A DNA stretch of 63,981 nt, the filler included, from Perkinsus olseni (lineage: Eukaryota), in assembly GCA_013115125.1 (NCBI GenBank). It is 6 parts of 6 records of this genome, joined end to end, with 100 filler letters (N's around TTAATTAATTAA, not from the genome) between each part and the next. Parts side by side here need not be neighbours in the genome. Positions count along the whole stretch, not along the records: positions 32,724 to 43,513 come from JABANN010000859.1; 5 more parts are not named here. The stretch is one strand, 5' to 3'. The position numbers and the translations under genes were made by a program. The first letter of the stretch is position 1. Each line of letters opens with the position of its first letter. The notes below the pieces were generated by a model, which was not told the origin of the DNA, ran no database searches, and worked only from the letters and a program-made list of their open reading frames with translations. This document shows, in pieces, positions 38,295 through 41,900 of this stretch.

Positions 38295-41200
38295 TCATGA
38301 CTTGCTATTTGGACGTGGTTGTTGATGACCAGCCAGCCAGAGTCTGAAGTCCTCAAAATTGATGTGACCATCTCCATCGATATCCATCTCCTCCACCCAT
38401 CGGTGGAATCGGCACTCAGCACCCGCGATGTCCAAGGGAAGGCGAGGTCGTGCCGGTACCGCTCCTGCAGAATAAATCACGCTCAGTCTACAATGAAGAT
38501 ACCAAGTCGGATTAACGATCAATGCCACGGACTCACTCGCCCGCCTATCGCAGTCGTCCGGCTCATCCGAGTAATCCGTCAGAGCGCACCTGTGTAGCAC
38601 TTCCACTCTCACCGTCCCAAAGGATACTACCTTCCACCCGCTAGGACTGCCCACAGGCTCGCCGCTACCTCGTTTACGGTGGGGGAGGAGGACCTCGGGG
38701 TGATGGACCGGAACGCTGCCTTTATCACTCCTTCCTCGCGCTGAAGCCTCCCTGTCATTGCCGATCCGACCTAACCTATTCTATGTCTTCATACTCACGG
38801 ATGATGCATGCTCCAACAAACTCTGTATAACCAATATAGCCTGTCGGACATCAGCTCGTCTGGTCTAGCGGATGCACTCTCCTCTTTCTACCTACCGTCC
38901 CCGGTTCTATCCATCGCAGAGGCGACTCTCCATGCATCCGAGGCATTCATTCTAGCCTGGGACTGCCGCAAAGCCTCTGCCACTCTCGATACCGGCAGGC
39001 ACCCTCGTGAATCCGAATCCAGGTCGGTGAATAGCGCCCTCACCTGAGAGGGGGGTGATGCCTAGGATATCCTCTTGCTTTCTACATGCTCCTGCTCCTG
39101 GAATGACCACTGATGGGCGATGAGGTTGATGATAGCCTTCTTCAACTCACTCTGCCGTGCATAGTAACACATACAGTCCACAACCCCACCAGAGAGGAGC
39201 CGAACTCCCTTCACAAAGTGATCATAAATCTACACCAGCTTCGCTCCGCCCTACATTTTTCCATCCGTTTCCTGAGGAGAATTTCCGCAGCCATCTGTGG
39301 TTGAGTAAATCAGCCGCACTCTCCCTCAATAGCGGATCCTTAACGAGCATCTTTTCAACCTGCCATTGCCTCTGGTCAACCTCAACTGAACTCCTCCTAC
39401 CAAATCTCGAGCCCCCTTGGGTACCCTCAACCTCCTCGACGAGTTACACATGTAGTCCGGCCATTGGACCCTCTTGTACAGTACCTGAAAGTGCCTCGGG
39501 ATCGCTGCGGCCGAGGCACCCCATCACATTAGACTTCACTTCACTGACGCTAGAACCGAAGAATGGCAGGTATCCGGTGAGAAGGAGGTAACTGATTAAC
39601 CGTTGATGGCGGAGGCAAGACGACTCCGTGCTACAGTATCACTCCCAGGCTCCAGATATCACACTTGTAGTCGAAGGGAGGACGGAAGATCTCAGGCGCC
39701 ATGTAGAAGGCAGTGCCCGCAACCTAGGATATGCTGAATACCAATAATTCCGCTCATCCTCTACTCACGTTCATGCTCTTTTCGGCGTTCGTCCCGAATA
39801 GCTCAGCTAAGCCGAAGTCGATAACCTTCACGTTACCTGCGGACGGTACGCATGCACATCCCAGACGAGAGGGGTGATCACCGGTGGCCCTCGGCGGTCC
39901 CCCAAGATACTCTCTGGGCTTCGACACGTCGACGAATAGGATATTCTCCGGCTTGAGATCCTAAGCAGGCCAAGCTGCAAGGATCGCCACATCGCGAGAA
40001 TTGCGAATGGAGTGGTATGACACCACACAGCACGTAAGCGCATGTTCGCCCGCAGCTGCGGCTGCCAGCGACTCAGGATTGTATTAGTGCGACCGGGGAT
40101 CGAACGCACGACCTCCCGGTGCCTGTATGATAGCTAGTACCTTGTGAACAACTCCCTGGTTGTGCATGAATGACAGAGCCGTGAGCACCTCCCTCGTAAC
40201 CTGCTATCATCGAATCTTCACCGCGCCATGAAATTCCCTCACATCAGCAATGAAGCTCTCCGGGAGGGAGGCGCCCTTATTGACTGCTGTTTGGATGACG
40301 GACAGCAGCTCCCCACCCCAGCAGGCCTCCATTATCAAATGGATATGTCTAATAAATCAACTCTTCACCATCATCATCATCCACACCAGCCTACTTCGGG
40401 TCTTCGAAATATTCGTAAATTTTTATGACGTTTGGATGATCCAATTGAGAGATTATTTTGATCTCTTCCTCGAGCTGGACCAGTGGCACTGATGATTTCG
40501 CCTTATCTACTGTTTTACATACTCGGAGCTGAGGAATGAGTTGAGAAAATGCAAGATTGGCAAGATTTTCAGAGCAGCATGCTCGACCGTACCTGATCAC
40601 TCTCCTTATGCACGACTTTGTGAACCACGCCGAAGCTTCCTCGACCGACAGTTTCGAGAAAGTTGTATATCTACTAAAATGACAAGCGTGGGAATTGAAC
40701 CTGGGCCCTGGCGCACCCACTTTGCGGACCCCGCCAGGAGAGTCATTCCGGAGGACATGAAAGGCTCGATGGACCTAGTAGTTGTCGTGGGTTCGAACCC
40801 CACGCCCAGCATATGGTCACCTTAAGCTTAGGCGAATGCCGATGAAGAGATTTCCGTAGAAACCTCAGCAAGGCCCGCCATAATAGAGGATAGCTCTCGC
40901 GAGTGACAAGCCCTGAAGATACTCCTTATTAAATCTTTCACGTGCGCACTCCCTGACCAGTCTGTGGATTGCAGTATCGAGTGAACAATATGAGAAGATT
41001 CTTATCCGAGATGCTGTTGATAGCCGTGGCCTCGCAGATCCGATTGACCTGAGTTACGGTAGGATCATCGCCCATCATTACTTCATCCGTTACCAGCCTT
41101 CGTAGCTGCCTCTCATTGAGACCCCCTCCCCGGGGGATGGCTTCGAACCCAAGGGGCTCCCGAGCTTTGGCTAGCTCAGTGAGCCGAGCCTCAACCTCGG

Positions 41201-41900
41201 CTACCGATAGGGAAGGATTGGATAAGGGGTTGAGTCGCTGATGATGCACGGGATGTCCCGGCTGGGATTCGAACCCACGACCTACATCTTCACTGTCACT
41301 TACTATTGCAGCACCGCAGTGGGGATCGTGCGAGCCCTTGCCCTCAGCCCCAGCACAGCCCCAACAGCAAAAGTCGTACCTAGACCATGCCTTATTTCGT
41401 GGCGCGCGGTAATCATTACCTTTCCAGACTTGCGGTGTAGCCCTCAGCGCACGGACGTCCGCAGCCGTATCTGGGCAAAGCATTGTTAGCAAGATGAGGA
41501 TCTCTCCCTGGTGATGATCACCGGCATTGGTCTCTACCAGTACGGGTAGACCCCCCACTGCTGTCCTCCTGCTGATGATATCCCTCGGGCGCCTTCCGAA
41601 TGAATGATATTCTCATAGCAACACTAGCGGATCAAAAATCCAGCAGGGAAGATATCTGGAAACTTGTCTCGAGGTCAACACAAAATAAAAGATACCCTCC
41701 TTGCACCGTGTATTCACAGATAGTCTGTGTAGGCTGCCCCTATACCCATAATCAACGGCTGCTATCGCCGGCCGCTGTCGCCGCCCCGCCATCGCTTGTT
41801 TTCCACTTGAAAGTTCAGTTGTCGGTAGCGGCTTCCCTTTCCTACTGCACCACCAACCTCCCGAGATTATGCTCAAAGGCCTCTCCTACAGCATGTGGAC
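38295..41900 (-). CDS. Calcium-dependent protein kinase (CDPK) with long N-terminal extension, many introns
   Basis: [64 protein letters not shown], plus C-terminal EF-hands ([22 protein letters not shown]). Start codon uncertain. Confidence 0.93.

Follow-up and report, generated by a model that had tools for sequence, protein, structure and literature searches.

What are fragments shaped like the 3' end of a transfer RNA (tRNA) doing inside the introns of a protein kinase gene, and where did they come from? The question is raised by a stretch of 63,981 nucleotides (nt) of the genome of Perkinsus olseni (GenBank assembly GCA_013115125.1; six parts of six records joined end to end, filler included), here called the window, in which positions 32,724 to 43,513, from JABANN010000859.1, contain a gene of the calcium-dependent protein kinase (CDPK) type. 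We found six such blocks, four in introns of this kinase gene and two in introns of a gene for a CS-domain protein, the two host genes lying about 10 kb apart. The blocks are a real, non-random feature that joins two known kinds of phenomenon, namely tRNA-derived relics and intron gain from captured DNA. As to their origin, we regard it as an evenly balanced proposition that they are decaying DNA-level relics of the 3' thirds of several tRNA genes, captured into these two genes.

The host genes were delimited by exact spliced mapping of annotated proteins. A protein search with an exon translation from the CDPK region retrieved P0001 (named hypothetical protein, Perkinsus olseni, at its source), which maps to 41616..38298 on the minus strand over 714 of its 714 residues, with 22 GT-AG introns, of which 19 measure 40-55 nt and the remaining three 64, 72 and 180 nt. 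Residues 209-485 match the Pfam Pkinase profile from position 1 to 263 of 263 (E 2.4e-63) and the C-terminus matches EF-hand families; the CDPK-type label is fair because a complete kinase domain is combined with C-terminal EF hands. A second P. olseni protein, P0002, maps to 51069-53823 on the plus strand (563 of 563 residues) with ten GT-AG introns, giving GT-AG borders on all 32 introns of both genes. A Pfam scan of P0002 returned no match, and the gene is called a CS-domain gene here from its relatives P0003 and P0005, both named CS domain-containing protein in UniRef.

By this mapping all six blocks are intronic. Within the kinase gene, all of whose introns lie on the minus strand, intron 3 (41238..41285; 48 nt, in frame and stop-free) carries block a at 41254..41283, sense to the gene and directly preceded by the donor GT at 41285-41284 (AGGTC-GTGGG-TTCGAAT-CCCAG-CCGGGAC-A; four of five T-stem pairs). 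Intron 6 (40775..40820; 46 nt) carries block b at 40782..40811, on the plus strand and so antisense to the gene (TTGTC-GTGGG-TTCGAAC-CCCAC-GCCCAGC-A; five of five pairs). Directly before the kinase domain, intron 7 (40671..40720; 50 nt) carries block d at 40680..40709 on the minus strand (AGGGC-CCAGG-TTCAATT-CCCAC-GCTTGTC-A; two of five pairs), while the 180-nt intron 11 (39961..40140), within the kinase catalytic loop, carries block c at 40085..40114, likewise on the minus strand (AGGTC-GTGCG-TTCGATC-CCCGG-TCGCACT-A; three of five pairs). The CS-domain gene has block e (51691..51720, plus strand; AGGTC-CCGGG-TTCGATC-CCGGC-ACCTGAC-A) in a 55-nt intron at 51684..51738, which our gene finder also predicts at all three of its settings, and block f (51921..51950, plus strand; four of five pairs) in a 140-nt intron at 51889..52028.

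Each block comprises 30 nt in the tRNA register 44-73, that is, a variable loop, a T arm, the 3' acceptor strand and the discriminator, and the six align without gaps over 30 columns, nine of them invariant. The sequence AGG(T/G)C, like a class I variable loop, opens five of the six; C72-A73 ends four (block f being without it), and A73 occurs in five. These end-matches are unlikely by chance, and the alignment suggests that the likeness reaches the very end of the tRNA. Five blocks have a whole B-box core (GGTTCGAATCC, GGTTCGAACCC, GGTTCGATCCC twice, and GGTTCAATTCC), motifs that we take to be B-boxes from their agreement with the consensus; the exception is block c in intron 11, with a degenerate variant, GCGTTCGATCC. 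Decay is evident in the T stems, which retain 5, 4, 4, 3, 3 and 2 of five pairs over the set, and in X8, a DNA run that diverges by about 3-5%, where positions 40080-40093, the acceptor part of block c, are gone and three further indels occur in intron 11, introns 3, 6 and 7 being present without indels. The orientation of block b is read from its flanks, the T arm being nearly palindromic; a covariance model scores it 31.4 bits on the plus and 14.2 bits on the minus strand, b having been trained in the plus orientation.

The preliminary description of this locus, made from the sequence, had reported four tRNA-3'-end-like blocks in introns of the CDPK gene, one with a perfect T stem and two more degenerate, one placed right at a donor GT, in both orientations, with differing acceptor strands and no 5' tRNA halves, and making up more than half of three short introns. 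All of this agrees with what we find: blocks a, b and d fill 30 of the 46-50 nt of their introns, b is the perfect and antisense one, and the six-block alignment and our searches for 5' halves (below) concur.

Could such blocks arise by chance? The strict motif GGTTCRANYCC matches the window eight times (seven sites, one palindromic) against 0.51 expected, and none of 100 shuffles reaches eight; the sites are blocks a, b and d, a genuine tRNA-Ala gene, 51699 (block e), 51929 (block f) and 7690, the variant in block c escaping the motif. The looser GTTCRANNC occurs 28 times against 16.6. For comparison among introns we assembled 42 trusted ones, made up of the 22 and 10 annotated introns of the host genes and 10 introns of a neighbouring gene backed by RNA joints; they range from 40 to 248 nt, 32 of them falling between 40 and 55 nt. 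The strict motif is present in five of the 42; over 500 dinucleotide shuffles the corresponding number is 0.012, and no shuffle gives as many as five. The set is biased in that its annotated genes were chosen because they hold blocks. Among 145 further predicted short introns there is one with the motif, and by its coordinates this is an alternative model over block f. Thus, 6 of the 32 host-gene introns have blocks, while elsewhere neither the 10 RNA-supported introns nor the roughly 144 predicted ones have any: the blocks are not general among the introns of the window and are confined to two genes. Predicted introns occupy 18-28% of the window, and all six blocks lie inside them.

These predictions come from a rough gene finder of our own, tuned so that it recovers 8 of the 10 independent RNA-supported introns and 20-21 of the 22 kinase-gene introns. 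Earlier settings had over-predicted (at least 1456 introns) and then under-predicted (25-39); the finder is unstable under self-training and takes in-frame, stop-free introns for exons (for example 43168-43212), and its output serves as a rough denominator only.

An origin by chance, or by convergence on splice signals such as a GTAGGT donor with an internal hairpin, can draw on the fact that GTAGG starts 9 of the 42 trusted introns and that AGGT in block a coincides in part with the donor consensus. A looser search also lends it some colour: a T-arm stem-loop scan of the window gave 9 hits against 3.3 expected (sd 1.8), which is not significant. Against it stand the counts for the strict 11-mer (8 versus 0.51) and for the trusted introns, the C72-A73 ends of four blocks, and the varied positions of the blocks within their introns, one of them antisense. 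We consider the probability of this explanation to be close to negligible.

Evidence on splicing comes from sequencing-run contigs compared over 32724-43513, a stretch outside which blocks e and f lie. Three runs, X7, X11 and X12, which carry no record as RNA, were taken as such from CT..AC joints in the neighbouring gene, where, among the joints listed, these occur at 10 introns; X7 also has listed joints at three block-free introns of the kinase gene. Two contig ends bear on introns with blocks. Contig 4 of X11 aligns exactly as far as 41237, where intron 3 has its 3' edge, and has 14 more unaligned letters, and contig 15 of X7 aligns from 40721 after 78 other letters, 78 nt being also the size of the next exon (40670-40593). 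These ends are consistent with splicing of introns 3 and 7. For intron 11 there is also the protein itself, as the Pkinase match is complete once the introns inside the domain, this one included, are removed. The N-terminal region to which introns 3 and 6 belong has no Pfam domain, and the protein search gave no relative of it outside P. olseni.

Coverage of the kinase gene is weak, while the neighbouring gene is highly covered and cleanly spliced. The kinase-gene contigs of X7 have 39085-39044, 39254-39209, 39768-39724 and probably 40720-40671 removed and keep most other introns, a retention that suggests inefficient splicing, pre-mRNA or DNA carry-over. Intron 4 (41049-41093, minus strand; 45 nt, in frame and stop-free) is retained in the same X11 contig that seemingly splices intron 3, and may be coding or optional.

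As to which tRNA genes the blocks derive from, the reference for a real tRNA 3' end was the genuine tRNA-Ala(TGC) gene at 54204..54275 on the plus strand (called by ARAGORN; 66.3 bits with the Rfam tRNA model), which is followed by a run of T. It is the only tRNA gene that ARAGORN and Rfam found over the window, none being called at any block. In 5'-truncated mode the 3' ends of tRNA-like Rfam families give matches to block a, with 15.2 bits for mascRNA (E 0.21) and 8.5 bits for tmRNA, a member of the tRNA clan (E 0.019). Focused Rfam scans of the 140-nt and 180-nt introns gave no matches and no 5'-half remnant, and no anticodon-arm-like hairpin was seen upstream of blocks c and f, the only two with room for one. 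The acceptor strands differ between most blocks, and BLAST found nothing in common outside the T arm, from which it follows that several tRNA genes, and not one repeat family, were the source. Blocks d and e, the most alike of 496 intron pairs (z 7.3) with a likeness that reaches into the acceptor part, may by this measure come from one source, and blocks a, b and c have GTCGTG(G/C)GTTCGA in common, a and b being identical at 18 of 19 nt.

These partial likenesses are also what might be expected of a mobile short element with a tRNA-related module, comparable to an introner, a short interspersed nuclear element (SINE) or a miniature inverted-repeat transposable element, which is spliced out and of whose diverged copies the blocks would be the recognisable part. 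In addition to the a-b-c and d-e similarities, such an element would fit an exact 11-mer, TAGGTCGGATC, common to introns 35600-35647 and 38752-38798, and the presence of introners in the related Amoebophrya, described in excerpts of PMC7789003. However, sharing does not extend beyond the 30-nt block and the acceptor strands mostly differ. The covariance model, built from the six blocks and tRNA-Ala, found no convincing new copy in 64 kb: its seven top matches are its own members, which is circular, and are followed by the reverse strands of e (17.2 bits) and b (14.2 bits) and then by at most 13 bits, the best score of a non-member. By eye, the only inspection made, the intron edges have neither terminal inverted repeats nor target duplications, and the inverted and direct repeats at non-canonical splice sites that excerpts of PMC7789003 describe for Amoebophrya are absent here. 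We therefore judge a mobile element to be unlikely.

Like tRNA pseudogene fragments and SINEs in introns, the blocks descend from tRNA genes, have a B-box, are intronic, occur in either orientation and appear to decay neutrally. SINEs, however, occur as families whose members have a body and a tail behind a complete tRNA-related head that includes both the A and the B box; the blocks are limited to the 30 nt of positions 44-73, lack a tail, derive from several source tRNAs and form no family in the window, where we saw no A-box half, no common flanks and no further copies. Features of the primer-binding site of a long terminal repeat (LTR) retrotransposon, about 18 nt complementary to the 3' end of a tRNA with its CCA and adjacent to an LTR, are lacking in the blocks as well: there is no TGG/CCA and no flanking repeat, and five of the six lie in the tRNA sense. 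Introners, known from Micromonas, Aureococcus and Amoebophrya, are similar in being short inserts spliced as introns, with the last of these in a dinoflagellate-related lineage (PMC7789003, in excerpts). According to the same excerpts they form multi-copy families with shared sequence and often inverted or direct repeats (PMC7789003), whereas the blocks share only what all tRNAs have. Among the 42 trusted and 145 predicted introns likeness exists at the T-arm level only, a statement about one window rather than about a genome-wide introner family.

The ends of the blocks bear on whether RNA or DNA was captured. In none of the six does CCA follow the discriminator (the next bases are TCC, TAT, ATA, TTT, TGT and ATT), and block d is followed by TTTT, as at the real tRNA-Ala gene. 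The lack of CCA and this T run indicate that the source was tRNA-gene DNA or a precursor, and not complementary DNA (cDNA) of a mature tRNA. More broadly, cDNA of tRNA 3' fragments, whether reverse-transcribed ends or tRNA-derived small RNAs, could have been captured into the genes; the copies are 3'-anchored, as if copying had begun at the 3' end of an RNA, and four end in C72-A73. Besides the missing CCA and the TTTT after block d, this proposal has against it that the blocks lack a tail, poly(A) or other, as well as target duplications, and to our knowledge the common 5' limit near position 44 corresponds to no class of tRNA fragment. Hence it seems to us quite improbable. As regards the preliminary description, its tRNA-3'-like intronic fragments are borne out; they are enriched over shuffled introns (among the trusted introns) and do not collapse, within the window, into one SINE family. 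Its proposal that they are cDNA of tRNA 3' ends is not supported; its other suggestions were extra-TFIIIC sites and a source of tRNA fragments.

An isolated B-box without a full tRNA gene is also a feature of extra-TFIIIC (ETC) sites, and the blocks might be kept as such, with the B-box GGTTCGANNCC binding TFIIIC and acting on chromatin or transcription. In this vein, five of six blocks keep an intact B-box core alongside decayed T stems and acceptor strands, the 14-nt deletion of X8 in block c spares the B-box, and the six sites fall within 14 kb, near a tRNA gene. However, because the blocks were found by that very motif, the conservation of the B-box is a matter of ascertainment, and AGGTC and C72-A73, real tRNA features outside it that are not known to take part in TFIIIC binding, are most simply explained by descent from tRNA genes. 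ETC sites, as known in yeast, are defined by TFIIIC occupancy and conservation and are typically intergenic, whereas the blocks sit within introns as short as 46 nt and are recognised by their sequence alone. We accord the idea little credence.

Alternatively, whole tRNA genes might once have stood in these introns and been whittled down by deletion until only the 3' part was left and the introns had the preferred size. The indels in intron 11 and the T run after block d, which resembles a gene terminator, would suit such a history, as would the great number of tRNA genes in Perkinsus reported in excerpts of PMC3706591. Random loss should nonetheless leave random parts, yet all six blocks start near position 44 and four to five reach position 73; a 72-nt gene in what is now a 46-nt intron would require a detour via about 120 nt; and the two long introns hold no remnants of a 5' half. 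The whittling of entire genes thus appears to us a doubtful route, and an improbable one overall.

We favour instead capture at the level of DNA. Scraps of the 3' third (positions ~44 to 73) of different tRNA genes would have been captured into the two P. olseni genes, would be tolerated because the spliceosome removes them, and would have no sequence-specific job of their own. The antisense block b fits such a DNA insertion better than a role at the RNA level. In the 140- and 180-nt introns the blocks would be passengers, inserted into introns that already existed. In the introns of 46-55 nt the block makes up about 60% of the intron and the remainder is 16-25 nt, far below the 40-nt minimum, which suggests that the block came with the event that created or rebuilt the intron. 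Conceivably, break repair used a tRNA-gene scrap as filler and GT and AG were recruited at its edges; in an exon, a patch would survive only if it could be spliced out at the preferred size, that is, as a minimal-size intron. Intron gain is, from size alone, plausible for these short introns. That tRNA-gene scraps are a recurrent raw material for new spliceosomal introns in Perkinsus, patching breaks in exons, is a wider claim, and we consider it rather unlikely.

There are parallels for parts of this process. In Daphnia and Drosophila intron gain has reportedly been proposed to occur via break repair with captured filler DNA, and introns derived from organelle DNA are known. The likeness lies in short foreign DNA that becomes the core of a new intron and supplies the edges at which splice sites are recruited, and filler capture would explain a block that fills a minimal-size intron; the difference is that gain is deduced here from intron size alone. 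We know of no report of tRNA genes as a source of filler. In the literature that we searched, on Perkinsus and elsewhere, where the P. olseni genome paper did not come up among the hits, we found no description of spliceosomal introns with a tRNA 3' fragment as their core.

The scraps may have come from tRNA genes, which are very numerous, when these broke; the breaks were perhaps the work of Dada transposons, which target such genes. On the B-box side of such a gene TFIIIC covers roughly the part from the variable loop to the gene end. According to excerpts of PMC3706591, P. marinus has five types of tRNA gene with more than 500 copies, as well as insertions of five Dada families in its tRNA genes; in zebrafish, one-ended events of Dada transposition leave fragments of tRNA genes. 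The resemblance to the blocks thus lies in an element that cuts tRNA genes and can leave pieces of them behind; in the same excerpts (PMC3706591) the target given for Dada in P. marinus is TAGCTC, in the A box, unlike the limit of the blocks near position 44. No Dada sequence adjoins the blocks, and a link between Dada and the blocks is conjecture.

Several observations weigh against the capture of tRNA-gene scraps as we have drawn it. Random capture leaves unexplained why the six blocks cluster in two genes (6 of 32 introns against none of about 154), and the common 5' limit near position 44 is equally unaccounted for. This limit at position 44 can be read in blocks c and f only. As the blocks were found via the T-loop motif, the presence of 3' ends only may be partly ascertainment, because scraps of tRNA 5' halves would be missed by such a search. 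The intronic location is itself little surprising, since most of the non-coding DNA here is introns, the intergenic gaps around the kinase gene measuring about 150 and 550 nt. The blocks were compared with a single tRNA gene, the tRNA-Ala gene of the window, whose acceptor strand is different. Contigs of X7 retain introns 3 and 6 (contig 15) and 11 (contig 14), and for three of the four block-bearing introns of the kinase gene splicing is predicted from the annotation. Finally, introns 3, 6 and 7 are already present, free of indels, in the divergent run X8, and intron birth is something we only infer; a metagenome scan for orthologous loci gave 45 loci that are 26-39% identical, too distant for a comparison of introns.

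Several look-alikes were considered and left out of the count. Intron 3 agrees with the intron at 35600-35647 at 27 of 48 positions by eye, which is not significant among the 496 pairs. An exonic GGGTTCGAAGCC at 41139-41150 is a weak resemblance, and five further places, 7679-7708 (-), 21042-21083 (-), 48920-48940 (-), 43167-43196 (+) and 53649-53697 (+), are too weak to count. The last of these, in the final intron of the CS-domain gene, has a weak T-loop-like or e-like AGGTTCGACCGTTCAACTC; comparable weak sequences are CCGATCCGGGCACCTGA at 48920-48940 (-) and CATGGGTTCGATTC at 21042-21083 (-), and a weak CGTTCGAACC lies in an in-frame 45-nt candidate intron (43168-43212, plus strand) of a band-7-like gene. 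At 7679-7708 (-) a perfect 7-bp hairpin (GACGATG..CATCGTC) precedes a T-arm-like GGTGG TTCGACT CCGGT, after which come two bases and TTTTT. This site, the motif match at 7690, falls outside all gene models and has no ARAGORN or Rfam call; a truncated relic of the RNA polymerase III (Pol III) type is one possibility. The 11-mer TAGGTCGGATC mentioned above (35636-35646 and 38763-38773, both minus strand) is part of a similarity of about 20 of 23 positions between its two introns; inspected by eye, the pair could, on weak grounds, be an e-like tRNA block with internal deletions.

Apart from the blocks, the window contains an inverted duplication of about 1 kb (3389-4465 versus 10398-9304; 92-94% identity, predicted introns included), and repeats also link 2358-3106 with 22487-22686. 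A near-perfect hairpin of about 29 bp at 62441-62509 scores 39.5 and 37.1 bits on its two strands with models of plant microRNA precursors, far short of the threshold of 90, and is probably an inverted repeat and not a known RNA. Ten 44-nt blocks of N, paired and recurring every ~10.9 kb (10820-10919, 21725-21824, 32624-32723, 43514-43613 and 54398-54497), look like masking rather than biology.

The origin of new spliceosomal introns is a long-standing question, and most introns bear no trace of where they came from; several minimal-size introns described here have a core of recognisable source. If the blocks are mere passengers in old introns, they would serve as neutral markers of indel dynamics in very short introns. 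If the pattern is true genome-wide and the introns are absent in sister species, it would make captured-DNA intron gain datable and countable in an intron-rich alveolate. It would also tie the birth of introns to Pol III genes, and perhaps to Dada transposons, as a new route that can be identified from sequence, and would connect such gain with tRNA genes that are unusually abundant and fragile in this genus.

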